64,000 nucleotides of DNA from Candidatus Woesebacteria bacterium (GTDB lineage: Bacteria; Patescibacteriota; Microgenomatia; UBA8517): contig CP066686.1 in the NCBI GenBank assembly GCA_016432365.1, forward strand, positions 64,355-128,354, written 5' to 3'. This document shows, one piece after another, positions 6,811-63,296 of this stretch. Numbering within the stretch: the first letter of the stretch is position 1; every line of letters begins with the position of its first letter. A program made the translations under genes and the position numbers. The notes under the pieces were generated by a model. The model was given only the letters and a program-made list of their open reading frames with translations. It was not told the origin of the DNA and made no database searches.

Positions 6811-6813
6811 TTT

Positions 6814-48109: not shown

Positions 48110-48217
48110 ATGAATAGCTAAGAGCTGAAAGCGAAGAGCTAAGAACTTTAGCTTCAGTATTATACCCCTGGGCCTGTAGTCTTGACAAGCGGGAGAAGAA
48201 AAAAGTAAATTGATCTC

Positions 48218-48520: not shown

Positions 48521-48537
48521 TTACTCAAAATTACAAT

Positions 48538-49632
48538 CTACAGATCAAACAATTCATTATCGGAGAAAAAAATTGTATCAGAGACGTTGGGAACATCCGC
48601 AGCAAGCATAACCAGCCTATCAACCCCAACGGCAATTCCGGACGACATTGGCATTCCGCTTTTGAGCGCGTCAACAAAATCTTCATCAATAGGGAAATCG
48701 GTTTTGCCCAGCTTTTTTCTTTCAGCTAAATCTGCCTCGAACCTTTTATGCTGCGCCTCAGCATCAGTTAATTCGCTAAAACAATTTCCAAGTTCCACCC
48801 CAGCCAAAAACACTTCAAATCGTTCCGCAAACCTTGGGTCTTCTTTCTTGGGTCGGCTTAAGGATGCCTGGGCCAGTGGATAATCATAAATAAATGTAGG
48901 CTTATGAGAATCTCTTATTTTAGTTTCGATCTCATTCAAAAATATTTGATAAAACATCTGTTCCCAAGTCGTATTTTCCTTGTCCGCCAAAGCCTTGGCG
49001 TCGGCGGGTTCAACAACATATCCCTTGGCTCGCCCAGCATTCAGTAATTTTTCTTCGGAAAGAAGTGTTTCAATGTCAATTCCTGCAAATTTTTCAAACG
49101 CTTCCGCCACTGTTATTCTCGGCCAAGGAAGAGACAAATCATATTCCTGCCCTTGATACACCATTTTTTCTTTACCAACTATTTCCAAAAATAAGTGTTC
49201 AAAATCCTTCATTGTGTCCTTATAATCGGCATTAACTCTATACCACTCAAGTATGGTAAATTCGGGAGAATGAAGTCGGCTTACTTCTTCTTCATTACGA
49301 AACGAGTGTGTTATCTCGAATAAACTCCCCACCCCGGCAGCAAGCAGTCTTTTGTGCGCATATTCCGGAGAAGATATCAAAAACGCTCTTTTTTGTTTTC
49401 CGGTTGATGTCCTCAACTGAGTCTCAAACACCTCCAAATTGGGTTCTATTGAAGGAACAGGAACCATAACCGGCGTAAAAACTTCATGAAACCCTTCCTT
49501 TTTGAAAAAGTCACGTATGGTTTGTATTACTTTTTCTCGAACAAAATAGTTTTTTAATAAATCAGGATTTTTTTTGATTTTCTGCCAAGTTTTGTCCATT
49601 TTCAGTGTGATTTTAGCACATGAATCACCCAC
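48538..49632 (-). CDS. epmA: EF-P lysine aminoacylase EpmA (PoxA/GenX; class II LysRS catalytic-domain paralog)
   Basis: It has class II aaRS motifs (FHEVFTPVM, SFRNEE, GNCFSELTD, GIAVGVDRLVMLAA) and lacks an anticodon-binding domain; length is 364 aa. It lies next to efp. Confidence 0.7.
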   Translation of the reverse strand: MGDSCAKITLKMDKTWQKIKKNPDLLKNYFVREKVIQTIRDFFKKEGFHEVFTPVMVPVPSIEPNLEVFETQLRTSTGKQKRAFLISSPEYAHKRLLAAGVGSLFEITHSFRNEEEVSRLHSPEFTILEWYRVNADYKDTMKDFEHLFLEIVGKEKMVYQGQEYDLSLPWPRITVAEAFEKFAGIDIETLLSEEKLLNAGRAKGYVVEPADAKALADKENTTWEQMFYQIFLNEIETKIRDSHKPTFIYDYPLAQASLSRPKKEDPRFAERFEVFLAGVELGNCFSELTDAEAQHKRFEADLAERKKLGKTDFPIDEDFVDALKSGMPMSSGIAVGVDRLVMLAADVPNVSDTIFFSDNELFDL

Positions 49633-49667
49633 CCGCTCAAAAAAATGTTAATATTCACTAGACAAAA

Positions 49668-50819
49668 ATGAAAAGATCAAGAACTATAGATATTTTTTTA
49701 CTAATATCAGTCGGCGTCTTGATAAGGTTTGGGCTTTTTAAATTGCTGGGAGAGGAAATAAACACATTCACGAGACTTTTTGGAACTGTCTCAATCTTAG
49801 TTGTTGGAGCCTTAGTTCTAAAGGGATGCGCCGAAGTAATAGAAGAGACAACAGATATCTTGTCCCGCAGAACCAAACTTGCCGGAGGTTTTTTGCAGTC
49901 TATCGGCACCGCCTTTCCGGATATGGCAATCGGAATCGTCGCTGCTTTGGTAAGTTTACAACTACGCCATACTGATTATGCCTTAGCCGTATCGTTTGCC
50001 ATTATTGCCGCCGCTACCACCTTCGGCTCAAATATTTATAATATTGCCCATGCTGCATGGTGTATTTTCCGGCAAAATCTGGCAAACAACCTAAACCGGG
50101 ATGTGTTGATGTTTCCTCCTTTTGTAAAAGGAGGGACAGTCAGACCGCTCAAAAATCATATAGCTAAGCCAACTTCTAAAGAAATCGATACTTCAATCGA
50201 TATTTTAAATGCCCTGACGATAATTACTGCAATAGTAGCAATTTCCATGGTTCTTTTTGGAAAAGTCGCATCTCCCCCGGAGGGAATGGCGGGCGACCTT
50301 TACCAGCTCATTCGCCCTGTGGGTTTTGTTGTATTCTTTTTGTCTGCTCTGGTTGTGTTCTATTTTAGAAAAACCCAAAGAGCAATAACCAGTGACGAAG
50401 AAAGAGTTCACGAAAAAATGTACTACTCAGGTAAATCAAATTTGCTTATATCTTCCCACCTGATTCTTTCCGGAGTTTCTATCCTTTTGGCGGCAGAAAG
50501 TATGGTTCACGCCGTCCAGGTATTTTGCGAGATTACCAACTTGCCAACTGTCGTTGCCGGTGTTTTTGCGGGGCTTATTGGCTGCTTGGGGGAAATGTTG
50601 GTTGTCCACAACTACTCAATAAGTCCGAAGGGTAGAATTGCGGACGCAATAGTCGGAGTTGGTATGGATAATATAGTTACAACTATCGGAGCCTCAATTG
50701 TAGCAATAATGGGAGGGATTTTCCTTGGAGGAAACGCCTTAATTCTCATTTTCGTTATCATTTTAGCCCTAAATACATCACTAATTTGGCAAATCTCCCG
50801 CCTCAAAAACTTTCTTTAA
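49668..50819 (+). CDS. Integral membrane protein, Ca2+/cation antiporter (CaCA)-like
   Basis: It has ~10 TM helices and two alpha-repeat-like motifs (GTAFPDMAIG; GASIVAIMGG). Confidence 0.4.
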   Translation: MKRSRTIDIFLLISVGVLIRFGLFKLLGEEINTFTRLFGTVSILVVGALVLKGCAEVIEETTDILSRRTKLAGGFLQSIGTAFPDMAIGIVAALVSLQLRHTDYALAVSFAIIAAATTFGSNIYNIAHAAWCIFRQNLANNLNRDVLMFPPFVKGGTVRPLKNHIAKPTSKEIDTSIDILNALTIITAIVAISMVLFGKVASPPEGMAGDLYQLIRPVGFVVFFLSALVVFYFRKTQRAITSDEERVHEKMYYSGKSNLLISSHLILSGVSILLAAESMVHAVQVFCEITNLPTVVAGVFAGLIGCLGEMLVVHNYSISPKGRIADAIVGVGMDNIVTTIGASIVAIMGGIFLGGNALILIFVIILALNTSLIWQISRLKNFL

Positions 50820-50875
50820 TTTAACTTGGCAGCAATCTTGACATAGCTAAATGTGATCTATATACTACAGGACTT

Positions 50876-51586
50876 ATGACGGCCGAAGCAGTAAATATCA
50901 ACGATGCACTCGTCCAAGAACAAACAGCTTTAAAGGCTGCTGTGGACGGTGGAAATTGGGAGGCTCTGACAGCCGAAGCTTTTCCAATCTTTTCGAGTAA
51001 GCAACCCAGACCTTTTTACCTGGCCAGATATGGAATGATTAATGCTGAAATACAAAGTCTAAGCCAAGGCCCGGCAGTCGGACTCATGGATGAGGCTTCT
51101 CAAAGTACACTCCGTGGTAGAATGATTGAGCTAGGGGCGGCCGCGTCAGAAACCATCAAGCTCCTCTACCCCAATGTTAAGCCGGTCCCTCAAGAAACGT
51201 TTCCCGTAACCCCAGACACAATCGAGACTATTGAGGCTTTTGTAGCTAACGGAGCAATTGACCAACTGAATGAGGAGTCGATTCCGGGATGGGACAACCT
51301 GGCTGCAGATCAAAGGCTTCTTTACCGGCTCAGCGCACTACAAACATATTATGACAAATGGCAAGATAGCGCCAATAACGATTCTTTGAACGAAATTGCC
51401 CCTCTTGGATTTACCTCAACTCCAGACAGTCTCGTTCGCCGGGTTAAAAACGTAACTGAGGTTGTTCAAGAAAAAATAATTGAAAGACATCTGACCGAGT
51501 GGCTTAAAGAAGCGGAGGAACTAGGTCTAAATGATAACCCGACCGTCCAAACCGCCAAAAAGCTTCTAGACTCAAAAAATAAATAA
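50876..51586 (+). CDS. Hypothetical protein (236 aa)
   Basis: An ORF that is unassigned. Confidence 0.4.
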   Translation: MTAEAVNINDALVQEQTALKAAVDGGNWEALTAEAFPIFSSKQPRPFYLARYGMINAEIQSLSQGPAVGLMDEASQSTLRGRMIELGAAASETIKLLYPNVKPVPQETFPVTPDTIETIEAFVANGAIDQLNEESIPGWDNLAADQRLLYRLSALQTYYDKWQDSANNDSLNEIAPLGFTSTPDSLVRRVKNVTEVVQEKIIERHLTEWLKEAEELGLNDNPTVQTAKKLLDSKNK

Positions 51587-51587
51587 A

Positions 51588-53069
51588 ATGGAAAGATTAC
51601 ACGGACAAAAATCGTATGAACAAGAATTGAGAAACGAGCTCAAAAACCCTGCCTTTAAAGAGGTTTTTGGGTATCGAAACGGATATCTCGTCCTGAATCC
51701 CATAGAGGGTTACAGAAAAAATGAGATCAGGATGGTCGACCTTCTCAATAAATATGGAGAAGGAGGAGCTATTCAAGTAACCGATCTTGGAATGATAAAA
51801 AAACGTGCCCATCAGCTAAAAGAAATTTTATGGAAAAGCGCGGATTCTGTCGGTTATCCCAAAAACAAAATACAACCCCACCACGCTTTCAAAGTAAACA
51901 TTAAAGGCCCTAACATTTTGTCCGCTCTCTCAGAATTGGAAGCTGAAACAAGTTGGGAATTTGATCTTTTTAATGTTCAAAAGATGAGGCGCAGAGGTTA
52001 TGTTCGTGAAGACATTAAGGTTGTGAGCAATGGTTTCATATTCGATTGGAAGCAGGGAAAAGACCCGAGTTATGCACGTAGGATAATTGATGCCCACAAC
52101 GAAGGAATTGATATTACTCCGATTTTGGGACCGCACATGCTTCCATACTTTCAGAAAAATGTGAACAAAGGTGTATTAAGCGTAGGCCTGAGGTTAAAAT
52201 TCGGTCAGGTGTCGAGCGACGCCGAGCTGGAAAAATTGGTATCCCGATTCGGATTCGGATGGACTGATTTACAAAAAGAGGCACAACTTATAAAAAATTC
52301 GCGGAATGTTGAATTTACCATGCTCCACGCAATGATCACGGCAGCACACACGATTGAGCCCCAGGCAATGGCCAAAAGTGCCCTGTTTGCGGCCGAAAAA
52401 TGGGCTCAACTCAAAAAAGTTCACCCGAGTTTGACTCATCTTAATTTTGGCGGAGGTTTCCCCACAATAGACAGTGGATTTGACCATGATGCCTTCCTGA
52501 AAATTTATTTTTCCGGAATAACGGAAATATGCATGCGTTATGGAGTAGATTTACCTACCGTAGTCATAGAAAGTGGAAGTTTTGTGGCAGCAGACACTGA
52601 ACACTTGATATACCCTGTCGTAGACACATATAAAAATAGTTCAAACCCCTACACAGAAGTGAATGTTACCAATACAATTATGGATTTGGCGGATATATGG
52701 GTACAGGAAGACCCTTTCACCTTTGTAGCTATCGATCATGCTAATGATGCCCCAATTCAGGTACGTTTAGGGGACACCACCTGTGATTCAAACTGCACCT
52801 ACCCACCCAAAAACCAACCTGACAGGTATATATCCATGCCGGAAAACACTAGCGCAGTTGTTGCTATTATGGTTGGAGCATATCAAGACGTTTTGGGAAC
52901 GATCGCCGCTCAAGGTGAGGCAAAAAGTGTCGAACACTGCGGCCTTAGAACTCCAAAGCAAGTTTATATTACAGAAACAGGACAGATATGGACCAATACT
53001 TTGCCTTCCATGGAAGAAATGAGCAATATTGCAGGTTATAACGACAAAATGCTCTCTTTGGTGAAGTAA
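51588..53069 (+). CDS. PLP-dependent decarboxylase-like (alanine-racemase fold; Orn/DAP/Arg decarboxylase family)
   Basis: It has AFKVN (PLP-Lys-like), NFGGGFPT and a C-terminal CDS-type motif; length is 493 aa. Confidence 0.45.
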   Translation: MERLHGQKSYEQELRNELKNPAFKEVFGYRNGYLVLNPIEGYRKNEIRMVDLLNKYGEGGAIQVTDLGMIKKRAHQLKEILWKSADSVGYPKNKIQPHHAFKVNIKGPNILSALSELEAETSWEFDLFNVQKMRRRGYVREDIKVVSNGFIFDWKQGKDPSYARRIIDAHNEGIDITPILGPHMLPYFQKNVNKGVLSVGLRLKFGQVSSDAELEKLVSRFGFGWTDLQKEAQLIKNSRNVEFTMLHAMITAAHTIEPQAMAKSALFAAEKWAQLKKVHPSLTHLNFGGGFPTIDSGFDHDAFLKIYFSGITEICMRYGVDLPTVVIESGSFVAADTEHLIYPVVDTYKNSSNPYTEVNVTNTIMDLADIWVQEDPFTFVAIDHANDAPIQVRLGDTTCDSNCTYPPKNQPDRYISMPENTSAVVAIMVGAYQDVLGTIAAQGEAKSVEHCGLRTPKQVYITETGQIWTNTLPSMEEMSNIAGYNDKMLSLVK

Positions 53070-53333
53070 AATTCTACTGTTACAATCAAACCTATAGGTT
53101 TGACATTCGCCTTCACTTGATATAAAATCTCCCGGCAAATTAACCCTCCCTGGTTATTTGGACTTTTTGTTCTTTAACAAAATCTACAGACACCACATCC
53201 ATGAATTGAGTTCCAAACTGTGGTGTATGCTCAAGAAATCACTTAGTCCAACTTTTCAATAAAAAGAAGTGATTTCTTTATCTGTTTAATTGACCAAAAA
53301 CCAGGCCTACTTTTCATTCAAAGGAGAAAGAAA

Positions 53334-55223
53334 ATGGCAAATCCTCGTTTTAATGGCGTCAGGCCACCGTCTCGACCTGTCAGATTACCGCTTCCGACAG
53401 AAGCTGCGCAGCCACAGCGAAACCAGCGCCCCCCGCTTCGACCAGCTTTTGTGGCCGGTATTGTGTTCGTCGTGTTGTGCCTGCTCGTGAGCTCAGTCGG
53501 CTCGTACATTTGGTTTAACCGACCGAGTCAGCCAACCGAGCCTACCCCGACAGGACAGTCAGGTGGATTTGAACAGCCTACATCGGTCTTCGTTCCCGGT
53601 TCTTCGCCGACCCAAATCGCGATTCCTACTGGACCAAAAGCGCCAGTCACGATTGGATTTGTTTACTATGTCGGATATTACGAAGTGCCCTTGATGGCGC
53701 GCCTGAACAATCCCTACTATCAGGCAGTTCCTGTTCCGTTCGAATTCCAGGCAGAAGAAAACGGTGCGATACTGACTAAGGGTTCCGAATCCGAACAAAT
53801 CGAGATGCTTCGCAACGGCGAGATCGACATCTTGCTTACAACCAGCGATGTACTGGCCAGATACCCGACCATCGGAAAAGGTGTTGTCGTTTGGGATCGT
53901 AGCCATGGTGTTGACCAAATTTGGCTTTCGAATAATGGTCGCACACAAAGCTGTGCCGGACGCCCACTCAAAATCTTTAACGATCTTGGTGCAAAATACG
54001 ACACGAGCGGCGCCATGATGCAATCGCCCTGCGTTATAGCAGTGGTATTCAACTCTGTAAGCGAATACTACGCCCTGAGCTACACCAAAATCACCGGTAT
54101 GACCAAAAACGACATTACCTTCGCTTACTACGATACAGCGGCAGAAGCTGTAGCTGCTTTCAACAATGGCGAAGCCGATGCCGTTGCTTGTTGGGAACCT
54201 GACTGCCAAAGTGCCAACGATGGCAAATCTTTTAAACTGACAAGCACCATTGACCTGCACACGATTTATGACGTCATCTTGGTTTCACGTCAAGCCGACC
54301 AAAACAAGAAACCGTTGGTAATCGAAGCTTTGGCCGACCTCTTTGCTGTACGCAACATGTTCCTTGCAGACCCAGAAGGTACGGCAGAACTTGTTGCTCA
54401 GTGGCAATTCACGGCGCCGACGGAACCTACCAGTTGGTGGCTTGGCCCAACAGACGGTGCCACCTACTCTACAAACTGGTGGACTGGTGTCTCCTCCGGT
54501 ACGGCCTACGATGATATGCAGTACTGGGGCTTGGGTGGAATTGCGCAGGCTAAGTTTGACCACAACCTTGTTTATCTTTCAAGTCCTGATCTGTGGTGGG
54601 ATAACCTTGAACTTGAACGCAAAGTCTGGGAATGGGGCGGCGCACAACTGGAAACACCATTCGATCCTAAAACAATGGTTGATACGTCTTACTTGCAAGC
54701 GCTTTCCGGTCGCAAAAATCTGTATGCGCCCAAAGGCATGTCTTTCTTAGACAACACCTTCTCACCGTTCCCGCCCGAGGCGGCACTGCTACCGGAGACA
54801 ACTCGTGTTATTGCCGAATATGCATGTCCAAATGTATTTTTTGGCCCTAACGCAACCACCATCCCTCAAGGAAGTGTGCAACAACCGAATCCTCAATACG
54901 TGGCCTTTGTCGACTGTGTCAAAACATTGATTCAGGTCATGAATGAGGCCGATGTCCGTATTGAGATCGTCGGTTCTGCCGCTAACCCTGATCCAGCGAT
55001 CTTTGGATCACTCTACGCTCATTGCGGCGAGCTCACGGATGACGACTACTGTTTGAAAATCGCAAAAGGGCGAGCAAATTGGGCCTGGAACGAGCTTGTG
55101 AATCTGAGTTTTGATATGACTCGCGTCACGATGTCTACCGAAGTTGGACCACGCACAAGCAGTCAAAGTGTGATGTCCGACAGCCGGTTCATCATTATCA
55201 GAATCCTGGCTGCAGGTTCCTAA
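53334..55223 (+). CDS. Membrane-anchored protein with an NMT1/SsuA-type substrate-binding-like domain plus a large C-terminal domain; GC-rich, first gene of the island
   Basis: It has a strong SD (AAAGGAGAAAGAAAATG), a Pro-rich N-terminus with a TM helix, then IGFVYYVGYYEVPLMARL...GEIDILLTTSDVLA (SBP-like). GC is ~55% against a ~38% background. Confidence 0.5.
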   Translation: MANPRFNGVRPPSRPVRLPLPTEAAQPQRNQRPPLRPAFVAGIVFVVLCLLVSSVGSYIWFNRPSQPTEPTPTGQSGGFEQPTSVFVPGSSPTQIAIPTGPKAPVTIGFVYYVGYYEVPLMARLNNPYYQAVPVPFEFQAEENGAILTKGSESEQIEMLRNGEIDILLTTSDVLARYPTIGKGVVVWDRSHGVDQIWLSNNGRTQSCAGRPLKIFNDLGAKYDTSGAMMQSPCVIAVVFNSVSEYYALSYTKITGMTKNDITFAYYDTAAEAVAAFNNGEADAVACWEPDCQSANDGKSFKLTSTIDLHTIYDVILVSRQADQNKKPLVIEALADLFAVRNMFLADPEGTAELVAQWQFTAPTEPTSWWLGPTDGATYSTNWWTGVSSGTAYDDMQYWGLGGIAQAKFDHNLVYLSSPDLWWDNLELERKVWEWGGAQLETPFDPKTMVDTSYLQALSGRKNLYAPKGMSFLDNTFSPFPPEAALLPETTRVIAEYACPNVFFGPNATTIPQGSVQQPNPQYVAFVDCVKTLIQVMNEADVRIEIVGSAANPDPAIFGSLYAHCGELTDDDYCLKIAKGRANWAWNELVNLSFDMTRVTMSTEVGPRTSSQSVMSDSRFIIIRILAAGS

Positions 55224-55309
55224 GTTCTAGGATAGATTTGAAGTAAGTTATGCCGGTACGGTTAACGTTGACACAAAGTCAGCAACAACCGTACCGGCAA
55301 TTTTTTTGG

Positions 55310-56101
55310 TTATTCTCGCCTTCCGTTAGCAAAACTTTCACTGGCCTCATCGTAAAATCTCTGAATAAGATACCTCAACTGAACCAGATTTAAGTAAGCA
55401 ATCCTGTCGGATGGATTGGCAATTTTTCCACGGCCATCTGCGCTGTCTCCAATTTTGTTTAACTCTGCGTCCGCAATTGCATTAGTTACCAGATCAGAAT
55501 ACCCCTTTTGATCAGCCACGTTTTGTTTTTCATCTATTTCCGAAAGAGCATTAATAACTTTTAGCAAAAAACTCCTATAAGCCAGTTCGTTTGAAGGGTT
55601 ACCTGCGGGATCAAAAAGAATTATGCTAAGCCTCTGACTTTCCGATTGCGGAATTATCAAACTGTATGACTCCGACTCCCCGCTTCCCCAATTTATCTGC
55701 TTTTCAAGAATTGCCTTTAGTAAATCGAGTTCTTCAACCTCAATAATCTCTATTTCTCCACTGGTATTTACACAAGCCAACGAAAGCACATCCTCACTAA
55801 ATTGATTACCGTTATCCCGATTGTCTATAGGCCTCGACATTTCAGTAAAATCGAAAGCTACCGGAGTGAATGAAAGCTCCTCAGTCGTTAAAGTCAAGGG
55901 TTGCGGGTCTACCCCTCTTTCCATTTCCCCCGCATTTGAAGTTAGTAGTCTCCTATTTGTGACCACGGTAGGATACCCGGCTTCGTCCCATCCAAAATGA
56001 AGAATTTGACCACGACCTCCCCTTCCAGCTACCTGGACAAGACCGAAAACATAATTTAGTTGTCTATTAGGCTGCCTAGTCTCAATTTCAATGTTTGCCA
56101 T
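55310..56101 (-). CDS. Hypothetical protein (263 aa), last gene of the minus-strand island operon
   Basis: An unassigned ORF with moderate GC and no SD. Confidence 0.4.
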   Translation of the reverse strand: MANIEIETRQPNRQLNYVFGLVQVAGRGGRGQILHFGWDEAGYPTVVTNRRLLTSNAGEMERGVDPQPLTLTTEELSFTPVAFDFTEMSRPIDNRDNGNQFSEDVLSLACVNTSGEIEIIEVEELDLLKAILEKQINWGSGESESYSLIIPQSESQRLSIILFDPAGNPSNELAYRSFLLKVINALSEIDEKQNVADQKGYSDLVTNAIADAELNKIGDSADGRGKIANPSDRIAYLNLVQLRYLIQRFYDEASESFANGRRE

Positions 56102-56183
56102 ATTTATTTTCTAAAAATATTTAAATGTAAATCCTGTTGCCGGGTAGTTTATATAAACCTATCCGGCAACAGAGTGTAACTTA

Positions 56184-57158
56184 CTATCCTTTATACCCCC
56201 GGGCATACTCATCGGCCTCGGCCAGCGTCGAGCGAACCGACTGATACTTCGCAACTTCCGCCGCAAACTTCTCCACCTCAGCCTGGGCAACTCCCTTGAT
56301 GGTTGCGGAATTCCCAATCTGATTGGCGGCAAGCGCATTGGCGCCGTAAAGCATGTTCTGAATTCGTTCCACGTTCCAGGTCATGTTTGCCAACTGCTTT
56401 AGAACCGCGTCAGGATCGCCGAGCTTGGCCTCCAGTTGTTCCATGAACGTGAGTTGTTTCAAGAGAAGAACAACATCCTCAGACTTCATGTCGAGAACAG
56501 GCAAGGTCGCCCAATCCAGAACAACCGGTGATTCGGCAGGAGCCGCGTAAGCGATCTTGCGGAATGCCGAACCGAGCTTGCCGCGCCAATAGGCAATTCC
56601 TGTTTCCGCGACCGGACGGGACTGCTCTTCCTTCCACAAATCGACAACCCTGATAACAGGCGGGTTTTTTGTCAGATCGTTGAAGAAATCGAACTGCCCG
56701 GCTACACGGTCTTGAATCTTCTGCGCCGGCGCTTGTGCGAGATCCTGTTCGTCAAACTCGGCCTTTGCAATGCGGTCAAGCTCCTCGAATGCCTCAGGAT
56801 TCATCTCCCGCGTGGTGCGCTTCGAGATTCTGTCCGCGAGTTCCATTCCCTGGTTAGCCACAACCACCAAACAATCAGCAATGGCTTTTTGCACCGAGGA
56901 AGGGGTCACGCCGTCGATCGACGCTTGCATCATTGTAAACGCCAGATCAACATCCAGTCCCAATCTGTTATTGGTGAGCAGGATGGCTGCAAGACGAACC
57001 TTACCCATGATCATTTTGAGATTGGGCACGTCCGCCACCCAGGCTTTTACCAGATCTTCTGCATCCAAAACCTGCGGTCCGGTTGCGGAAACTGGCTCGG
57101 CTACAGCCTGAACGGGCACCGCCGTGCCAGGTTTTTCGTCCTTACTTTTTGGGGTCAT
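56184..57158 (-). CDS. Hypothetical protein (324 aa), GC-rich, downstream of the E1 gene
   Basis: It has a strong SD (AAAAGGAGAAAACAATG) and no recognisable motifs. Confidence 0.45.
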   Translation of the reverse strand: MTPKSKDEKPGTAVPVQAVAEPVSATGPQVLDAEDLVKAWVADVPNLKMIMGKVRLAAILLTNNRLGLDVDLAFTMMQASIDGVTPSSVQKAIADCLVVVANQGMELADRISKRTTREMNPEAFEELDRIAKAEFDEQDLAQAPAQKIQDRVAGQFDFFNDLTKNPPVIRVVDLWKEEQSRPVAETGIAYWRGKLGSAFRKIAYAAPAESPVVLDWATLPVLDMKSEDVVLLLKQLTFMEQLEAKLGDPDAVLKQLANMTWNVERIQNMLYGANALAANQIGNSATIKGVAQAEVEKFAAEVAKYQSVRSTLAEADEYARGYKG

Positions 57159-57394
57159 TGTTTTCTCCTTTTAATCCAAAAGTATTGGTTTGAAACGACA
57201 AAGAGCGATTTGTGATAAAAATCACAAGCTTTTAGTAACCCAGGGAGTTTATAGGATAAAAGAAGAAAAATCAACTATGGGTTGAGGGTTTTTGCCAAAA
57301 AAAAGGTGGTACTGTTTTCTGAAATTAATCAGTAACAGTACCACCTGTCGTGCTAAGTCTCCAGACTAAACTGGATCATCCATATCGTGCGAAA

Positions 57395-57715
57395 TTACTC
57401 GCTGCGCTCTTCGCCTTCTTCAGTGGCCGCAAATTCCGTCTTTTTGACGGCAGCAGCAACTTGGCCGGGCTCGGGCTCAGGAGCGGACTCGGTGGGGGCA
57501 TCTTTGAAGGTCAAAGTGACCTTTTTGCCGCCATCAGGCTGATCTTCGAACTGGCATCCCGTGACGGCCGCCAACAGATCAATGCTCTCAGCAGTGATGT
57601 CGGGCATATCCTTCGGCGTCCAATTGACGACACCGTTTTCGTCGGCCTTGGCGAACAGGGCTTCCCATGTGGCAGCAGGGCCACCGGTCAAATTACCAGG
57701 CATGCGTGTGTTCAT
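57395..57715 (-). CDS. Hypothetical acidic protein (106 aa), GC-rich, immediately downstream of the E1 gene
   Basis: It has a strong SD (AAGGAGAAAAAAATG) and a Glu/Pro-rich C-terminus. Confidence 0.4.
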   Translation of the reverse strand: MNTRMPGNLTGGPAATWEALFAKADENGVVNWTPKDMPDITAESIDLLAAVTGCQFEDQPDGGKKVTLTFKDAPTESAPEPEPGQVAAAVKKTEFAATEEGEERSE

Positions 57716-57732
57716 TTTTTTCTCCTTGTGAA

Positions 57733-58665
57733 TCAGATGTTGGATGCGCTTGTAACATCATGCGTATGCGCAGTGCATTCGCTCCACCTTTCAAGCGCTA
57801 GAGGAAAGGTAGAATTCCGGATGAGGAGCGGAAACCGCCCATTTTCTTCCGGACCAAACATCATTGTCCTCTGCATCGAAAGCTTCGACTGCAGGGCAAT
57901 GTATTCGGAAAGTTCTCTCATGATATCCCCCTGGCGGAGCCTTCGAACTTCAACCCAGTCCTGGAAAGCGATCATCAAAACTGTAGGGTCGATTTTCTTG
58001 GTCGTGGCTACCACGTCCATGACGCTCATTGCCATCCAGTCGGCAATTATACCAACCGGGGCGCCCAAAGACGGAACAGCCTGCGGGGCTCCTTCAGGAC
58101 TACGAAACTGAGTCGGATCAAACCCGTAGTTTTGATCGGCCGGATGACCGGAATACTCCAAGTTTCCCAACGCTCCTTGTGCGCAGACAAAACATACTTT
58201 ATCGGGATGTGGCAAAGTAACAACCTGGCCGCCTTTCCCTTGAGCATATACAGAGCCGACAATCATCGGAATATTATGCTTCTCGCACCAGGCGCTGATC
58301 CTGTATTTAACGTCCTCGTCATCTACAGAGACAATTGCAGCGGCTGCGTCGGTGTGTTCCTCAAAGATCGCTTCGGCATCACCAACGTGGGCAATAACTT
58401 TCTCACCCGGTACGCCGTGCTCGATAAGGGTTTCCCGACAGCCGATTGCTTTGGGCTTACCGATCCACGATTCGTCCAACCAGTGTCTCTCGATGTTCTC
58501 GACTTTCAGGTTTTTAGGGTCAGCAATTACGATTTGTCGCCACCACGGGTAGGCAAGTTTTGACATCGCCCAACTGCCGACACTTCCCGCGCCCCAAAAA
58601 ACCAGCTTCGAAGCTTTGACTTTACTCAAGTCATAGACATTCGGAAATCGTGCCGGTCCGTTCAT
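57733..58665 (-). CDS. ThiF/MoeB-type E1-like ubiquitin-activating enzyme homolog (BilD-like)
   Basis: It has the Rossmann motif LVFWGAGSVGSWAMSKLA...IVIADPKNLKVENIERH (the GxGxxG...D...N[LI]xR[QH] pattern of ThiF/E1) and a CxxC pair (VCFVCAQG). The start overlaps the JAB gene stop (ATGA). Confidence 0.75.
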   Translation of the reverse strand: MNGPARFPNVYDLSKVKASKLVFWGAGSVGSWAMSKLAYPWWRQIVIADPKNLKVENIERHWLDESWIGKPKAIGCRETLIEHGVPGEKVIAHVGDAEAIFEEHTDAAAAIVSVDDEDVKYRISAWCEKHNIPMIVGSVYAQGKGGQVVTLPHPDKVCFVCAQGALGNLEYSGHPADQNYGFDPTQFRSPEGAPQAVPSLGAPVGIIADWMAMSVMDVVATTKKIDPTVLMIAFQDWVEVRRLRQGDIMRELSEYIALQSKLSMQRTMMFGPEENGRFPLLIRNSTFPLALERWSECTAHTHDVTSASNI

Positions 58666-59621
58666 AACTCACCTCTTGCTTCAAGTTTGAATATGGCCTC
58701 GATCAAATCCTCGCCGGGACTCCACAAAGGGCCTTCTAACAGCCTTTTTGAATTATAGTCACCTTGCTCGGTAGCTGATTTGCCTTCTAAGGCGTCTACG
58801 CTAAACTTTGGTGCCGCCTCGGGATAGTTCCAGGGTGTAACAATGTACAAAGTTCCACGCCAGACTTTTTCTTTTGTGACTTTAAAAACTATCTCCTGTG
58901 GCGGACCATCGCGAACATCGCGATATGAGACTTCAACTTCGGCGCCATAGTTAGTGATGTGCCTTAACTGCTCAAAATAGTCAGCGTCATTTGTAAATTG
59001 CCATCCCAAAGGAGGCAACATTGGCGCAGACTTGGCTTCAATGATGGTCGGGGTGACTGTAATGGGTTCGGTGATACCCATAGCCGCCATGGCTTTTGAG
59101 TAATAATAAAACACGATCCGAACCCTGGTGAACTCATTTACATCGACATAACCGGAGGTAGCCTTAAATTTCCAGTCTCCCGGGTTTAGAATTAAAACGA
59201 GAGGTCCTACAGCAACTTCCAACCCGTCTACGTTGATTGCATCCTTGATGGATTGTATATCAGTTCCGCTGTATTGGTTGAAATTCAAAGTGTGGTGGCT
59301 GTGCCCTTTATAAAGATACGCACACTTTCCACCTGGTTTTGAACCGAGTTTTTTTCGAAAAAGACCCTCGTTGGCGGTTAACCATATAAGCGCCTCTTTC
59401 TGACCGTCACCACCAAATGCAAGTTTGGCGTATCCTTTTTCAATATCTTCAGGGATCGGTTGGATAATATGAGTAACAATCACCGACTGGTGATCGTCCA
59501 TTATCACACCCCATAAACCGAAACCCGTTTCAATCGCAGGATTGGCTAAAACCTCGTTTACCATGGCGATAGCAGCACCTTTGGTCACTAAAATTCGCGG
59601 CCGTTTGGCTGTAATTTCCAT
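58662..59621 (-). CDS. JAB/MPN (JAMM) metallopeptidase, deubiquitinase-like, with a ~170-aa C-terminal domain (BilC-like)
   Basis: It has the JAMM motif: a Glu (IETGFGLWG), then HSHHTLNFNQYSGTD matching H-x-H-x(7-10)-S-x-x-D. It has a strong SD. Confidence 0.75.
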   Translation of the reverse strand: MEITAKRPRILVTKGAAIAMVNEVLANPAIETGFGLWGVIMDDHQSVIVTHIIQPIPEDIEKGYAKLAFGGDGQKEALIWLTANEGLFRKKLGSKPGGKCAYLYKGHSHHTLNFNQYSGTDIQSIKDAINVDGLEVAVGPLVLILNPGDWKFKATSGYVDVNEFTRVRIVFYYYSKAMAAMGITEPITVTPTIIEAKSAPMLPPLGWQFTNDADYFEQLRHITNYGAEVEVSYRDVRDGPPQEIVFKVTKEKVWRGTLYIVTPWNYPEAAPKFSVDALEGKSATEQGDYNSKRLLEGPLWSPGEDLIEAIFKLEARGEL

Positions 59622-59630
59622 TTTTCCTCC

Positions 59631-60215
59631 TTACCAGCCGTGCTTATCGTAGTGCCATACAGCCCAATCGAAAAAGGCCTGCATGAAACTGATTATGGTA
59701 TCGCGGCCCTTGACCCAGTCGTCCGAATCGGCAAAAAAGCATACCCACCCGTTTTCATACATGTGGTTTGAATGCATATCGCCGTCAAAGCGTTTGTAAC
59801 GTGGGTCGTCTATCCGAACGTGTGGCGGCTTATACGGCCACCTAGGGTCAAATCTGATCTCGACCCATTTGTCGATAAGAAGTTCGGGCGGGCGAGGTTG
59901 GCGCCTAAGTTGGGGTCTGTCCCTGAAAACCCGCATTTTGAACTGCAACAGCGGCTGCGGTTCACCATCAACTTGGACAAAATCTCCCCATTTGAATTGG
60001 TCAACATAAACCTGTAAACCTGCGTCCTTGTAAATTCTGGGAACACCGGTTCCGTTCTCTTCCCCTACAACCTTGGTTTTTTTTAAATAAAACCAATCCC
60101 TTATCGACTTGATCACGGCTGCATAGGAATAAAGGGGGTCGCCTTTGGTAAAGTTGGCCCGCGCTTTTTTAGGATCCCAAGATCCTGGAAAATCTGTAAA
60201 CCAGTTGGTTGTCAT
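59631..60215 (-). CDS. Ubiquitin-conjugating E2-like enzyme (UBC fold; BilB-like)
   Basis: It has IRFDPRWPYKPPHVRI...HSNHMYENGWVCFF, which matches the canonical UBC signature FPxxYPFKPPKVxF...HPNIxxxGxICL with the catalytic Cys. It has a strong SD. Confidence 0.75.
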   Translation of the reverse strand: MTTNWFTDFPGSWDPKKARANFTKGDPLYSYAAVIKSIRDWFYLKKTKVVGEENGTGVPRIYKDAGLQVYVDQFKWGDFVQVDGEPQPLLQFKMRVFRDRPQLRRQPRPPELLIDKWVEIRFDPRWPYKPPHVRIDDPRYKRFDGDMHSNHMYENGWVCFFADSDDWVKGRDTIISFMQAFFDWAVWHYDKHGW

Positions 60216-60230
60216 ATTCTCCTCGCTTTT

Positions 60231-60806
60231 TTAGATATCGTTCATTGATACTGTAACATCCGCCGTCCGTTGAATTCTGGCGTTGGCTCTTAAAGTCCCA
60301 TCGGGGTTAAGATTGCCAACAATTGATCCTACTGTCGGAACTATTGTGAGTTCGAAGGATGTTAGTTTGAAATACTTGGAACTCCCCAAAAAATCCGAAA
60401 TGGTAGATTTCTTTACTACTCCTAAAACTTTTTTGCCAAAAAGAACGGCTGATGCTTCCACTGTCCAAAGTCCGGCCATATCGTCACCGCGAGAATATTG
60501 GGTTAAATCTGCTACATCTTTGGCGGTGAAAAGCAGTTTACTGTCAGCTCTCTTTGCGAGTCTTGAAGTGTGAATCTGCCGACCGTCCTTAAGTGTGGTA
60601 AATTTTATGCCCAAAAAAACTACCGATTGGGGAAGAGGGCTAAGTTCAACCTGTAAGACAGGCTGGAAAGCGAAAACTCCCTTAATCGTTTCCAGGTCGA
60701 TTTCCAGAAAGTTCGTAACTTTGCCGGAAAGCGCCTTGTTAATCTGGCTGGGCGTATCCAAAACGTTGATTCCAAAAAAGGTTGGGTTAATTCTGAGGTC
60801 TGTCAT
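60231..60806 (-). CDS. First gene of the E2/JAB/E1 operon, in the position of the Ubl/BilA component; Ubl identity unverified
   Basis: It is 191 aa with a strong SD (AAGGAGGAGTAAATG) and sits immediately upstream of the E2. There is no C-terminal Gly-Gly (it ends ...SMNDI), so it may be a pro-form or a different component. Confidence 0.35.
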   Translation of the reverse strand: MTDLRINPTFFGINVLDTPSQINKALSGKVTNFLEIDLETIKGVFAFQPVLQVELSPLPQSVVFLGIKFTTLKDGRQIHTSRLAKRADSKLLFTAKDVADLTQYSRGDDMAGLWTVEASAVLFGKKVLGVVKKSTISDFLGSSKYFKLTSFELTIVPTVGSIVGNLNPDGTLRANARIQRTADVTVSMNDI

Positions 60807-60956
60807 TTACTCCTCCTTTCTTCGGAGTTTTTAGATATGGATGATGTTAACGAACAAGATAACGAAGAGCGATTCTACCACAACCCTCCTGTAGGAGTCA
60901 ATATTATGGGCCAGATTAAAAATGCCTTTTTTGCTCATTTAGGTTAAAATATTTAA

Positions 60957-62165
60957 ATGCCCGAGCGCCTTGCCTATCAAAGCGAAAACCATGAGTCGAC
61001 CAAATACGGAGAGGCTCTAACAATAGTGAGTGCCCCTTTTGGAAAACCTGTAAATAACGAAGAACTTTTAGCCCTAGCGCTTGATCTGGGCTTGCCTGTT
61101 AAAGAGATGGAAAATGCCAGGCATGCAATTACAGCAACCGGTTTCACCAACCGTTTCTCGAGTAATCCCCCTGAAGAGGAACCAAACACAGATTTGGCAA
61201 TCAAAGGCAGCATTGAAAACGGGGCCAAACTTCTTACAGAAATTATGAAAAGTCATGGGTGGACAGACGGAATAGACGTTTTTATAGACACGTCCGCGTT
61301 TCTCCCAAATTCTATCAATAAAGAAATTTTAGCCCTGGCCGGATTAAACCCTGACCACGTTGTTTCAAAATCTTACCGATACGCCTGTGCCGGGGCAGTT
61401 GGAGCCTTTATCGACTGCCTATCAGATCCGGCTCTTAAAAACACGCGTATTGTGATCGCCGCACTTGAACCACTAAGTTATGTCATAGACAAGTCCCATT
61501 TTCACTCCCCCAAATCAATTTCTATACCTGCCATATTCGGAGATGCAAACACCCTAATTGCTTTTACTCCGAATCGATTTCACCTGGATGTCAAACAAAT
61601 ATTAATCCAGCCTGACCACGGTGTAATAAAACTTAATACTCTCTACGATTTTGGTCAGATGCCTTCAAACCCTGCATCCACACCTTCACATTACCGATTT
61701 GGAGAAGGTGGTGAGTCCATCTTCCGATACTCAGAAAGTGGAGCCTATCTTAAAATTGAATCCCCCGGACAGGGAGCGTCGCTTTCAATGGATGGTATGG
61801 CCACAGGTTTTTTCTTTGGAGACCAAACAGCCTCAGTTATTACCGATCTTATTTTAGAACATGGTGACACGGACATTTTAAGAAAACTAAACGGAAAAAA
61901 TATTATTATGCACTCGGCTAGTAAACCGGTCGTAGACCGCATAGCCAAACTTTTACGTAGAAGTGAACATCGATTTTTAGATACTCCCGAACTTCCTTTT
62001 CTAATGGATAAAGCCAGACAATCAAATGGGAGTAGTGCCACGACCCTAAACAGATGGCAGTATATGATTAAAAACAACATGATGGATGCGGATTTACCAA
62101 TGCTTTGGATTGCACCCGGAATAGGGTCAGCCATCGCCGGAGCTATCGGTACAATTAACCCCTGA
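60957..62165 (+). CDS. Thiolase-fold condensing-enzyme-like protein (FabH/KAS III-like)
   Basis: It has YRYACAGAV (Cys nucleophile region) and MHSASKPV (His); length is 402 aa. The assignment is tentative. Confidence 0.4.
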   Translation: MPERLAYQSENHESTKYGEALTIVSAPFGKPVNNEELLALALDLGLPVKEMENARHAITATGFTNRFSSNPPEEEPNTDLAIKGSIENGAKLLTEIMKSHGWTDGIDVFIDTSAFLPNSINKEILALAGLNPDHVVSKSYRYACAGAVGAFIDCLSDPALKNTRIVIAALEPLSYVIDKSHFHSPKSISIPAIFGDANTLIAFTPNRFHLDVKQILIQPDHGVIKLNTLYDFGQMPSNPASTPSHYRFGEGGESIFRYSESGAYLKIESPGQGASLSMDGMATGFFFGDQTASVITDLILEHGDTDILRKLNGKNIIMHSASKPVVDRIAKLLRRSEHRFLDTPELPFLMDKARQSNGSSATTLNRWQYMIKNNMMDADLPMLWIAPGIGSAIAGAIGTINP

Positions 62166-62204
62166 AAATTGGACTGCTTCAAGAAAATGTTGTATTAATA
62201 GTTA

Positions 62205-63296
62205 ATGGTTGAAAATCTCAAAGCCAGGGGAACAGGGGTTATGCTCCCCCACGGTGGTCTGCCAGAAGTCCTTCCACCTTATTTAGTAAAATTAATTTCT
62301 GAGACAGGTGGTCCGGAAGGTCCGATCGGGCTTCAATTTGTAGCCAGACCCACTCTGGAACTTTCCCAATACGATTACAAAGAAAGTGACCCACTGCTTG
62401 AGGATTTCAACGAAGTATCTCCAGGGCTTGTTTATAAATATCGGGCAGGAAAAGATTCTGAAGGTCACTCTTATGCTGGAAGGGCTTTGTTTACAATAAC
62501 CCGCAACTGCGCAGCCTATTGTAGATACTGCACACGAGGAAGAGAGGTTGGAATCCCTGCAAATCAACAGGGCGAACTTTCCGGGACGTTGTCGCACACG
62601 CCACATCTTTCCAAAGAGCAAATCGATCAATCTCTCGAATTTATCCGAAATGAGTATGGTTTAAATGAAGTTATTCTTTCAGGTGGAGACCCCCTTACTG
62701 TTAGGCCTGAAGTTCTAAGCTATGTAACCGAAAAACTCGGAGAAATGCAAAGAGAAGGGAAACTTAGTATCGTAAGAATTGGAACACGGGTCCCAATCCA
62801 CAACCCACTTCTTATTAAGGAAGCACATTTTGAAGCACTCAAAAAGTTAAGAAACCCTCGCTTTATGATTCATGCTAATCATATCCTCGAATTAACCCCA
62901 GAAGCCCTTTCGGTTTTACAAAGGCTTAGAAAAGACTGTAACGGAGTTGTCATGAGCCAAACCGTACTTCTAAAGGGAGTAAATGATAATGTGGAAGTTT
63001 TATATAACCTCTTTACCAAGTGGGCTGAGGAGGGGTTTATCCCCTATTATGTCTTTCAAAATGATGCTGTCTCTTGGGCCAAGCATTTCACTGTTCCAAT
63101 TCAAGATGCAATTTCCCTTTGGCAAAAAATGCGTCCAAGGCTTTCAGGAGTAGCCGCAACTGCGCGTTTTGTGATTGACGTTGAAAGCGGATACGGAAAA
63201 GTGGCAGTTCCTGAAGCTGGGGCATGGAATATAATTTTTTCTGACGGGTTTAGAGACTTTAAGGGAACAAGGTTTGACCTTGGAGTTGCTGAATGA
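62205..63296 (+). CDS. KamA-family radical SAM protein (lysine 2,3-aminomutase/EpmB-like)
   Basis: It has the [11 protein letters not shown] CxxxCxxC radical-SAM motif in the KamA arrangement; length is 363 aa. Confidence 0.75.

Follow-up and report, generated by a model that had tools for sequence, protein, structure and literature searches.

A mobile cassette of predicted ubiquitin-type enzymes in an accessory region of a Candidatus Woesebacteria genome

A block of GC-rich genes in the 64-kb stretch of DNA analysed here (the window), which belongs to a genome assigned to Woesebacteria, is probably explained by a mobile five-gene cassette. The cassette would lie inside an 11.3-kb accessory region, be transcribed into a leadered mRNA and encode a protein conjugation pathway with a role in defence, and its Shine-Dalgarno (SD) sites and GC excess would be traits of the cassette family. 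An earlier note on this DNA had proposed recent horizontal acquisition from a higher-GC, SD-using donor; the accessory and laterally mobile character of the region is borne out, but the recent donor as stated is not.

The accessory region and its composition

In five relatives, epmA and a 402-aa gene are directly adjacent and divergent (gene maps of L004 to L008 and junction sequences), and therefore the DNA between these two genes in the window is extra. The comparison with related genomes lacking the island, which the earlier note had suggested, thus finds the site empty in five of them, and the boundaries given there (53334-60830) give way to 49633-60956 by synteny. The features are listed below, with the GC3 z of each gene relative to host genes (GC3 0.373 +/- 0.036).

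49633-60956: accessory region defined by synteny, 11.3 kb between epmA and the 402-aa gene
53100-53128, + strand: sigma-70-like promoter, TTGACA-17-TAAAAT, 11/12 matches, a consensus match only
53334-55223, + strand: membrane-anchored protein of 629 aa, its binding domain weakly SsuA-like; SD-led; GC 51.0%, GC3 z +4.0
55251-55299: hairpin with 22-nt arms (inverted repeat I2) between the convergent 629-aa and 263-aa genes
55310-56101, - strand: 263-aa protein; no SD site; host-like GC of 42.2%, GC3 z -0.4
56134-56172: hairpin after the 324-aa gene (inverted repeat I9)
56184-57158, - strand: 324-aa protein; SD-led; GC 54.4%, GC3 0.61, GC3 z +6.6
57296-60901, - strand: operon core (promoter, gene A, E2, JAMM with UEV-like domain, E1, small protein, terminator)
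57296-57346, - strand: intrinsic terminator, 13-bp stem then U8, closing the five-gene operon; spacer fold z = -4.9
57395-57715, - strand: small conserved protein, 106 aa, with an invariant K..FA and after it 1-10 variable residues; GC 57.6%, GC3 z +7.1
57733-58665, - strand: E1-like adenylating enzyme, 310 aa, single ThiF domain (Pfam ThiF, 2.5e-16); GC 51.6%, GC3 z +4.9
58662-59621, - strand: JAMM/MPN metallopeptidase with UEV/RWD-like domain (AF2 model, pLDDT 93); GC 45.5%, GC3 z +2.1
59631-60215, - strand: E2-like (UBC) protein, 194 aa, with invariant Cys159 and a YPxxPP motif; GC 48.4%, GC3 z +4.8
60231-60806, - strand: gene A, 191 aa, first operon gene, in the BilA position; GC 43.4%, GC3 z +1.5
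60872-60901, - strand: sigma-70-like promoter, TTGACT-18-TG-TAGAAT, about 60 nt 5' of gene A, a consensus match only

The GC content of the island (53334-60806) is 48.5%, against 40.8% in the remainder of the window; the contrast is real, although 50-55% against about 38%, as first described, overstates it. The distinct composition is also seen on quantitative analysis, with GC3 z reaching +7. In 3-kb windows starting at 52.5-57 kb, tetranucleotide usage correlates with the background at only 0.59-0.65 instead of about 0.93, and the dinucleotide delta* rises from about 40 to 67-115. Because per-gene GC spans 42.2-57.6%, the island is heterogeneous; its 263-aa gene resembles the host in GC, and gene A comes close to it. 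The left part of the accessory region, with genes of 383, 236 and 493 aa, has host-like GC and no SD sites. Consistent with the earlier remark that none is obvious, a search of the borders found no tRNA, integrase or convincing flanking direct repeat, and no phage, plasmid or IMG/VR relatives were found.

The 629-aa and 263-aa genes lie outside the operon. The promoter predicted some 200 nt before the 629-aa gene implies a leadered mRNA, and the hairpin at 55251-55299 is likely to be a bidirectional terminator. The 629-aa protein had been called SsuA/NMT1-like: it is membrane-anchored, but the SsuA-like assignment rests on a weak match of 39 bits (E = 5e-10) to TIGR01728, which has a cutoff of 163. 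In L004 the homolog at this position, 27% identical, is likewise GC-rich and SD-led; the 263-aa protein matches no family and has a 40%-identical homolog at the same position there, and both homologs adjoin the same 493-aa gene. Since the L004 sequence, which has the 493-629-263 arrangement, ends before the expected operon position, the whole block may share ancestry within one sub-lineage. The 324-aa gene, downstream of the operon terminator, is predicted to be a separate transcription unit; an N-terminus similar to that of its product comes after the operon in L003, the closest relative.

Shine-Dalgarno sites and GC excess across loci

Strong SD sites, defined by an anti-SD duplex of -7 kcal/mol or stronger at positions -20 to -4, precede seven of the eight island genes and 3 of 53 host genes (Fisher p = 2e-6), which agrees with the earlier description of an SD-led island in a host that is not; the exception is the 263-aa gene. 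The host rate (5.7%) is that of random positions (5.2%). The GGAG core lies 3-7 nt from the ATG in the island genes. A TANNNT box ending 3-10 nt upstream of the start codon is present in 29/53 host genes, where 12% would be expected at random, and in 0/8 island genes. Because these boxes abut the start codons, the genes of the host, a MAG with a tiny genome, are mostly leaderless. The host lineage nevertheless reads SD sites at a minority of its conserved native genes, and the CPR groups reported to lose the anti-SD (PMC9297842) do not include Microgenomates.

The five-gene module is found at unrelated sites in six further contigs. All five genes occur in the same order in L013/L014, L015, L016 and L017, and L002 and L003 hold parts of it up to the ends of their contigs. 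Strong SD sites by the same threshold precede 26/28 module genes in six loci, and module GC is 3-9 points above the flanks wherever these are visible (six loci, flank GC 34 to 58%). Since both features recur in all six, SD-led starts and GC excess would be traits of the cassette family rather than the imprint of one recent donor, and as marks of a donor, the earlier use of them, they carry little weight. Neighbours of the module at other loci include toxin-antitoxin genes, Fic and an integrase. The sequence comparisons support an accessory and laterally mobile region, because the site is empty in relatives, the operon family occurs elsewhere and the operon proteins are over-diverged.

A single recent transfer of 53334-60806 from a higher-GC, SD-using bacterium, for example a Chloroflexi-like one, with a composition not yet ameliorated, is unlikely. 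The composition anomaly is strong and reaches GC3 and the oligonucleotide signature; the GC offset of the window's module (+8.5 points) is at the high end of those observed; its closest relatives, in L003 and L002, are likewise about 50% GC; and Anaerolineae MAGs of 52-61% GC contain distant E2-JAB-E1 homologs, all of which speaks for such a donor. However, identity to the Chloroflexi homologs is only 22-30% and these have neither gene A nor the small protein, and six hosts of 34-58% GC show SD use and an offset in the same direction. In hosts of about 41% GC, the window and L002 each have an E1 gene of about 51% GC, but the two share only 41% identity, so that the GC excess persists over deep divergence. 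Also against this donor, the 263-aa gene within the island is host-like, the 629/263 pair is positionally common to L004, and the closer module relatives are predicted mostly in low-to-mid GC genomes by a crude amino-acid composition proxy of six points.

It is improbable that the genes are native and vertically inherited, with high GC3 and strong SD sites reflecting selection for the level or mode of expression. The lineage does read SD sites, strong ones preceding conserved native genes in several relatives (a DUF6580 gene, a glutaredoxin gene and that of a 72-77-aa membrane protein of GC3 0.57-0.71), and the window and L004 agree in having a GC-rich, SD-led 629-like gene. However, native SD-led genes gain only +0.03 in GC3 (p = 0.07; 169 native genes in six loci), far below the largest GC3 excesses of the island, and the site is empty in five relatives. 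In L013, a relative, the module lies at a different locus, between divIC and trpS, and its proteins (JAB 44%, E1 30% and E2 27% identical to those of the window) are far more diverged than the housekeeping ones (FtsH 67%, TrwB-like 73%). The family is also very rare, with 78 clusters among 1.84 billion representatives, and the data lean toward a patchy presence that is incongruent with the Woesebacteria genome phylogeny.

The operon and its proposed reaction scheme

The operon is predicted to be a rare, compact and self-contained unit of ubiquitin-type enzymes. E1, E2 and JAMM are identified by profile and structure matches, in keeping with the earlier description of a ubiquitin-like conjugation operon. 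At E<=1 the E2 profile finds 113 PDB chains (best E = 0.0015), and the 60 matches listed of these are all eukaryotic E2 or UBC-domain proteins; PADLOC E2 models match weakly. An invariant His151 lies eight residues upstream of Cys159. The JAMM/MPN domain occupies residues ~1-200 of its protein, and its motif is intact, with E31, H107, H109, S118 and D121 kept in 44-49 of 49 homologs; the top Foldseek matches of the model are BRCC36, Rpn11, CSN5, AMSH and the Caldiarchaeum Rpn11 homolog. The UEV/RWD-like domain at ~205-319 lacks cysteine, and its (Y/F)P..P motif aligns to that of the E2. The E1 matches PADLOC E1-E2 models down to 3e-14 and has TcdA, MoeB, ThiF and NEDD8 E1 as PDB relatives. Its invariant residues are GxGS, D49, R60, K72, D115 and CxxC plus C297; residue conservation reveals no obvious catalytic cysteine apart from those of the zinc site.

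Gene A is kept in all seven CPR-type loci with a C-terminus of the form [NDR][DNQ][IV]. Its AF2 single-sequence model is poor (pLDDT 36), and no Ubl signal was found. The 106-aa protein is a candidate for the conjugated modifier; hhalign gave no Ubl signal for it. No beta-grasp Ubl is recognisable among the operon proteins, neither candidate modifier has a conserved terminal glycine, and no defence-system model is significant for the operon set as a system.

From these features we infer the reaction order, the modifier and a role in defence as follows. The cassette would be transcribed as a single leadered polycistronic mRNA, and therefore each tightly packed cistron would carry its own SD site; host genes, by contrast, would mostly be leaderless, with a -10 box abutting each start codon. 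E1 would adenylate the C-terminus of a cognate small substrate, most likely the 106-aa protein after JAMM has trimmed its variable tail back to the invariant ...FA, or alternatively gene A. The substrate would be handed to Cys159 of E2 and then ligated onto target proteins. The JAMM domain may also undo conjugation, and the UEV-like domain may hold the modifier or E2. Antiviral or conflict defence is the likeliest role, judging from the analogous Bil and type II CBASS systems.

Relation to known systems

Bil (BilABCD), types I and II, is an antiphage ubiquitin-like conjugation system (bioRxiv 10.1101/2023.09.04.556158; PMC10557695). The module resembles Bil in enzyme content and order but differs on two Bil-defining features. 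Both have separate E2, JAB/JAMM and E1 genes in the same order (Ubl-E2-DUB-E1 in Bil, A-E2-JAB-E1 in the module), a small first gene before E2, a catalytic Cys in E2, no E3, a modifier or candidate modifier in which a conserved residue precedes a short variable overhang, as in pre-BilA, and a location in variable genome regions. In contrast, the module E1 has 310 aa and one adenylation domain whereas BilD is IAD-AAD-CYS, the JAMM bears a C-terminal UEV/RWD-like domain, E2 retains the classical upstream His, and a fifth conserved gene follows E1. Neither candidate modifier has a recognisable beta-grasp or a conserved C-terminal Gly, and there is no membership at the sequence level, the weak matches being to CBASS-type and 6A-MBL-type models (PADLOC, NCBIfam).

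Type II CBASS (Cap2, an E2-E1 fusion, and Cap3, a JAB) shares E1/E2/JAB chemistry on the C-terminus of a non-ubiquitin substrate, which can be Ala, and its Cap2-type E1-E2 models are the best PADLOC matches of the module E1 and E2. However, these scores are far under those of full-length matches; the module has no CD-NTase or effector, its E2 and E1 are separate proteins and its JAB is fused to a UEV-like domain. A classical genomic island likewise has atypical GC, codon and oligonucleotide usage, is absent from relatives at the site and carries conflict-type cargo, but the present region has no integrase, tRNA target, flanking repeats or transfer genes, and the compositional offset of the cassette recurs in every host.

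It is improbable that the E1/JAB pair serves sulfur-carrier or small-molecule biosynthesis (C-terminal adenylation of the ThiS/MoaD, CysO or microcin type) rather than conjugation: the E1 is compact, single-domain and of ThiF/MoeB type, with zinc-site CxxC cysteines and none that is clearly catalytic, JAB+E1+ThiS/MoaD operons of this kind are known (PMC1779556, Table 1 rows 4b-4d) and no Gly-terminal Ubl is found, but the E1/JAB pair is always accompanied by a dedicated UBC-type E2 in which Cys and His are invariant, a second UBC fold (the UEV-like domain) is joined to the JAMM domain, and no locus contains a rhodanese, cysteine synthase, ThiG, MoaE or other biosynthetic partner.

Bub (6E/DUF6527) is likewise a diverged bacterial Ubl pathway, sparse and found in mobile or defence loci (PMC11601596), and the 6e class includes an inactive E2/RWD-like domain (PMC1779556). 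However, the Bub pathway relies on oxyester chemistry at Ser/Tyr, has Ubl fused to E2 or E2 to E1 and includes a DUF6527 protease (PMC11601596), whereas the module has an E2 with an invariant Cys, no DUF6527 and unfused core enzymes. The module resembles the eukaryote-like archaeal Ub operon of Caldiarchaeum subterraneum (Ub, E1, E2, RING E3, Rpn11-like) in the structural neighbours of its JAMM domain (Rpn11, BRCC36, CSN5 and AMSH, with the Caldiarchaeum Rpn11 homolog among them) and in the match of its E2 profile to classical eukaryotic E2s over YPxxPP...H...C. In contrast to that operon, the module has no ubiquitin or RING E3, its E1 is minimal and of ThiF type, and its hosts are bacterial (Patescibacteria, Chloroflexi). 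As a separate observation, BilC removes overhangs from BilA (PMC10557695), and the variable tail after K..FA of the small protein resembles these overhangs.

Operon layout and encoded proteins

The source of the sequence is a Candidatus Woesebacteria metagenome-assembled genome (MAG) of the Patescibacteria, or CPR (1.08-Mb contig, locus tags HYV90_00745 to HYV90_00780). Five genes of its GC-rich island (53334-60806) form a compact operon of the ubiquitin-like conjugation type.

60901-60872 (-): promoter-like site, TTGACT-18-TGnTAGAAT, 5' of the operon
60806 down to 57395 (-): gene A, E2, JAB-UEV, E1 and a gene for a small 106-aa protein, with intergenic gaps of 15, 9, -4 and 17 nt
about 57346-57296 (-): 13-bp hairpin followed by U8, 3' of the operon

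E1 (310 aa) matches the Pfam ThiF family over residues 12-225 (2.5e-16); among solved structures, TcdA, MoeB, ThiF and the NEDD8 E1 are most closely related to it. It retains GxGS, D49, R60, K72, D115 and a CxxC...C zinc site. Its homologs, 303-312 aa in length, have a single ThiF domain and no invariant Cys beyond this zinc site, and the crossover region carries an invariant Tyr180. In E2 (194 aa), the YPxxPP motif, His151 and Cys159 are invariant. The E2 profile finds 113 PDB chains at E<=1 (best E=0.0015), and 60 of the 60 matches listed are eukaryotic E2/UBC-domain proteins. The AlphaFold model of JAB-UEV (319 aa), built with 48 homologs, has a pLDDT of 93, and the solved structures nearest to it in fold are those of BRCC36, Rpn11, CSN5, AMSH and the Caldiarchaeum Rpn11 homolog. 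The JAMM residues E31, H107, H109, S118 and D121 are kept in 44-49 of 49 sequences. The part from about residue 205 to 319 is Cys-free. It comprises one helix, then four strands and two more helices, and its invariant (Y/F)P..P motif can be aligned with the motif of E2 itself. The modelled secondary structure, this alignment and the lack of Cys suggest an inactive E2 domain of the UEV/RWD-like kind.

Gene A and the small protein are kept in all CPR-type copies of the operon. Gene A (176-194 aa) is the first gene; its product ends in [NDR][DNQ][IV], and its sole invariant Gly lies 21 residues from the end. Its single-sequence AF2 model has a pLDDT of 36. The small protein (84-106 aa), encoded 3' of E1, carries an invariant K..F-A and, after it, a variable tail of 1-10 residues. 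PDB profile searches with either protein gave no match, and hhalign against ubiquitin, NEDD8, SUMO and ISG15 gave probabilities below 1% for both.

Base composition and translation starts

The GC content of 53334-60806 is 48.5%, compared with 40.8% for the remainder of the window (window mean, 41.7%). The contrast described in the earlier note, 50-55 against 38%, is therefore real but smaller. The GC content of the island is not uniform, being 51.0, 42.2, 54.4, 57.6, 51.6, 45.5, 48.4 and 43.4% for its eight genes from left to right. GC3 is 0.373 +/- 0.036 in host genes and is higher by 4 to 7 standard deviations in five island genes; because GC3 is raised too, amino-acid composition alone does not produce the GC excess. 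The tetranucleotide correlation with the background drops to 0.59-0.65 in 3-kb windows starting at 52.5-57 kb (about 0.93 elsewhere), and the dinucleotide distance rises there to 67-115 (about 40 elsewhere). The codon-usage and tetranucleotide comparison proposed at first reading has thus revealed an anomaly in both measures, and the island has the atypical base composition and codon usage by which genomic islands are recognised.

Strong Shine-Dalgarno (SD) sites had been noticed in the island but not in host genes, and the counts agree. An anti-SD duplex of <= -7 kcal/mol lies just 5' of the start codon in 7 of 8 island genes and in 3 of 53 host genes (Fisher p=2e-6), and the host rate equals that at random positions. 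Conversely, a -10-like TANNNT box 3-10 nt before the start codon is present in 29 of 53 host genes (about 55%; random expectation, 12%) and in none of the eight island genes. The box is also found in 12 of the 23 host genes that start within 40 nt behind another gene. These boxes indicate that the Woesebacteria genome produces mostly leaderless mRNAs from promoters placed gene by gene. Taken together, the SD and TANNNT counts show a largely leaderless host and a leadered, SD-dependent island. The SD sites are not a mere effect of operon-internal position, because only 2 of those 23 closely spaced host genes have one. A leadered, tightly packed polycistronic unit needs SD sites.

Because conserved native genes of the lineage, such as those for a DUF6580 protein and glutaredoxin, bear SD sites, such sites are readable in this lineage. 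Microgenomates are absent from the CPR groups reported as losing the anti-SD (PMC9297842). An expression-linked explanation of the composition is weak, because native SD-led genes are not generally GC3-rich (only +0.03, p=0.07, n=169). The genome is a clean natural case in which two modes of translation initiation coexist, leaderless for native genes and SD-led for a mobile operon, and this contrast could mark accessory DNA in such genomes.

Two further genes bear on the signature. In three relatives (L005 19996-20214, L006 16425-16658 and L007 16100-16324), GC3 is 0.57-0.71 in the gene for a membrane protein of 72-77 aa that is conserved in the host lineage, and this gene has a strong SD site in L006 and L007. 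The combination of high GC and SD is therefore not exclusive to foreign genes. In the window, a GC-rich (51%) open reading frame at 7306-8208 (-) encodes a Trp-rich protein of about 300 aa that matches no family. Its start context, ATTCAAAAAGGAGAAAAAATG, is near-identical to those of the 629-, 324- and 106-aa island genes, and it sits between divIC and tRNA genes, where the relative L013 carries its E1/E2/JAB module. The Rfam matches of the GC-rich patch at 6900-8500 are to tRNA only.

Chromosomal site, distribution and mobility

The 402-aa gene at the right flank of the island has many orthologs in Microgenomates. In five relatives (L004-L008; 64-75% identical), epmA adjoins this gene directly and divergently across a double-promoter spacer of 30-60 nt; in the window, the two are 11.3 kb apart. 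By this synteny the extra DNA spans 49633-60956, which is larger than the 53334-60806 drawn at first. The comparison with related genomes that the earlier note had called for thus finds the site empty in all five. The left third of 49633-60956 (383-, 236- and 493-aa genes) has host-like GC and no SD sites. No tRNA, integrase or meaningful flanking repeat is found at the 53.3/60.8-kb or the 49.6/60.9-kb borders, in agreement with the first reading. The two junctions may share a short duplicated sequence (GCACATGAAT / GCTCATTTAG), but this is too weak to claim, and a prophage or integrative element is rejected for want of an integrase, att-like repeats and phage genes.

In the relative L004, a block of 224-, 495- and 631-aa genes followed by a convergent 273-aa gene lies about 5 kb from the 402-aa gene. 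These are homologs of the 236-, 493- (68% identical), 629- (27%) and 263-aa (40%) genes of the window, and the 631-aa gene is itself GC-rich (48 vs 40%) and preceded by an AAGGAGG site. The L004 sequence ends before the point where the operon would come next. These homologs indicate that the 629/263 pair is a fast-evolving accessory unit of the lineage that lies outside the enzyme operon. A homolog search with the 263-aa protein recovered itself alone. The 236- and 493-aa gene pair (window 50876-53069 (+); L004 16150-18324) is conserved between the two but at a different chromosomal position, and it belongs to the same variable region; the 493-aa protein is PLP decarboxylase-like, with weak similarity to SpeA/LysA.

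The module family is rare: a full HMMER pass found 78 JAB-UEV clusters among 1.84 billion representatives. JGI metagenomes scanned with alignments of JAB and of E2, IMG/VR scanned with that of JAB, and plasmids and phages searched by tblastn with the JAB-UEV protein yielded none, and PHROGs gave weak ThiF-type matches only. The nearest homologs lie on metagenome contigs with CPR-like flanks; the named matches are distant Anaerolineae MAGs (52-61% GC), which have an E2-JAB-E1 core of 22-30% identity without gene A and the small protein. In one Anaerolineaceae MAG (L010 785-2857), JAB-UEV and E1 form a single fused open reading frame. All five genes are complete in L013/L014, L015, L016 and L017, and two further copies (L002 and L003) are partial, running to contig ends. 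The flanks of the module are unrelated among loci and include toxin-antitoxin genes, Fic, serpin, MarR and radical-SAM genes.

L013 comes from a relative of the organism in the window. Part of it has the gene order of the window at 1-17.6 kb, and FtsH, the XerC-like recombinase and the TrwB-like ATPase are 67, 70 and 73% identical. Its module, however, lies between divIC and trpS, and JAB, E1 and E2 are only 44, 30 and 27% identical to those of the window. A different site, together with divergence in excess of that of the other proteins, speaks for separate acquisitions of distinct variants, and hence for lateral mobility. The pairwise identities (27-44% vs 67-73%) and the differing loci also provide the incongruence with the host expected of a genomic island. 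The DNA flagged at first reading is accessory and laterally mobile.

The composition of the other copies bears on where the cassette comes from. In the six loci whose flanks can be seen, strong SD sites precede 26 of the 28 module genes, and the flanking genes look leaderless. The module exceeds its flanks by 2.9 to 9.3 percentage points of GC in all six, with flank GC ranging from 34 to 58%. Both traits therefore travel with the cassette. The earlier proposal of recent acquisition from a higher-GC, SD-using donor holds as to lateral mobility; "recent" and the nature of the donor overreach, because the offset and the SD sites recur in six hosts. One recent import from a donor of high GC leaves several results unexplained. 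The sign of the offset is shared by all six hosts. Moreover, GC is about 51% in the E1 genes of both the window and L002, against about 41% in their hosts, although the proteins are only 41% identical, and the closer family members are predicted to be low-to-mid GC by a crude composition proxy (a six-point fit). GC richness plus SD sites thus need not point to a donor, since the cassette keeps both in hosts of 34 to 58% GC. As the cassette is GC-richer than every host, the persistent excess could stem from selection, from a hidden reservoir of higher GC or from biased gene conversion acting on DNA that is often exchanged.

Other features of the window and its relatives are as follows. The efp, epmA, thiolase/KAS-III-like 402-aa and KamA/EpmB-like radical-SAM genes are tightly linked in the window (47543-49600 and 60957-63296) and in L004-L008, and the 402-aa enzyme, which is uncharacterised, may be part of the pathway that modifies EF-P. 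A genome-collection scan with the flanking KamA-like gene gave no match. A TrwB/TraG-like coupling ATPase gene at 11516-13849 (-) and a gene at 8903-9766 (+), whose ortholog in L013, at 70% identity, is an XerC-like recombinase of the phage integrase family, keep their order in L013; both appear to be native rather than parts of a mobile element. A tRNA-Ile with anticodon UAU at 10434-10507 (-) represents an uncommon bacterial way of reading AUA. Two tRNA-Met genes and one tRNA-Trp gene lie within 6138-7106.

Comparison with known conjugation systems

Ubiquitin-like conjugation has only lately been shown to act in bacterial antiviral defence (Bil, CBASS). The cassette would bring it to the CPR bacteria, which are ultra-small, depend on hosts and have a little-known defence repertoire, and would do so with a simpler enzyme set of single-domain E1, JAMM-UEV fusion and non-canonical modifier. 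In Bil, a JAB peptidase trims a pre-Ubl, E1 adenylates it and E2 ligates it to phage proteins (PMC10557695, bioRxiv 10.1101/2023.09.04.556158). The module would follow the same logic of trimming, E1 adenylation and E2 ligation of a modifier, and defence is its likeliest role. The likeliest modifier would be the 106-aa protein trimmed to ...FA, with gene A as the alternative; function and modifier are both inferred.

The module resembles Bil, whose gene order is Ubl-E2-DUB-E1 (PMC10557695, bioRxiv 10.1101/2023.09.04.556158), in enzyme content and order. All seven CPR-type loci have a small gene followed by E2-JAB-E1, with a fifth conserved gene 3' of E1. BilC is an active JAB/JAMM peptidase; likewise, the JAMM motif of the module is intact and the model matches JAMM deubiquitinases, although the extra UEV-like domain is not described for BilC. 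BilA is built of one, two or three beta-grasp domains and has a conserved Gly at or near its C-terminus, whereas no Gly-terminal beta-grasp Ubl is recognised in the module. The Bil E1 has an IAD-AAD-CYS architecture (PMC11601596), which the module E1 lacks. These two differences, in the Ubl and in E1, concern features that define Bil and speak against membership in it.

The other systems differ further. Type II CBASS has a CD-NTase, an effector, the protein Cap2, in which E2 and E1 are fused, and the JAB protein Cap3; in the module, E2 and E1 are separate genes, and no locus has a CD-NTase or effector within the operon or close to it, so the module does not belong to type II CBASS. Bub (6E/DUF6527) has the DUF6527 protease BubE, a catalytic Ser in E2 and Tyr in E1, and Ubl-E2 or E2-E1 fusions. 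Unlike Bub, the module has the invariant Cys159 in E2 and unfused genes, and the operon proteins do not match PF20137; assignment to Bub is therefore rejected. None of the classes 6a-6e of Iyer et al. (PMC1779556) matches the operon; for example, unlike class 6d, the module E2 keeps the classical upstream His. In view of these mismatches, the operon is best filed as a new variant among bacterial ubiquitin-like conjugation operons.

A bolder reading, which we put forward tentatively and regard as rather doubtful, is that of a minimal, undescribed class of bacterial protein tagging. Its E1 would be of ThiF size, its E2 of the classical type and its JAMM peptidase Rpn11/BRCC36-like and fused to a UEV domain. 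The modifier would have no recognisable ubiquitin fold and, once trimmed, end in ...Phe-Ala. The whole would circulate as a portable, SD-translated cassette, GC-richer than every host, among Patescibacteria and Chloroflexi with leaderless translation.

Finally, a C-terminal motif is common to E1 (...[ND]I in 7 of 7 homologs) and gene A ([NDR][DNQ][IV] in 6 of 6), which occupy 57733-58665 and 60231-60806 in the window; the homologs compared come from L002, L013 and L015-L017. The shared motif could be a docking peptide or a pseudo-substrate.
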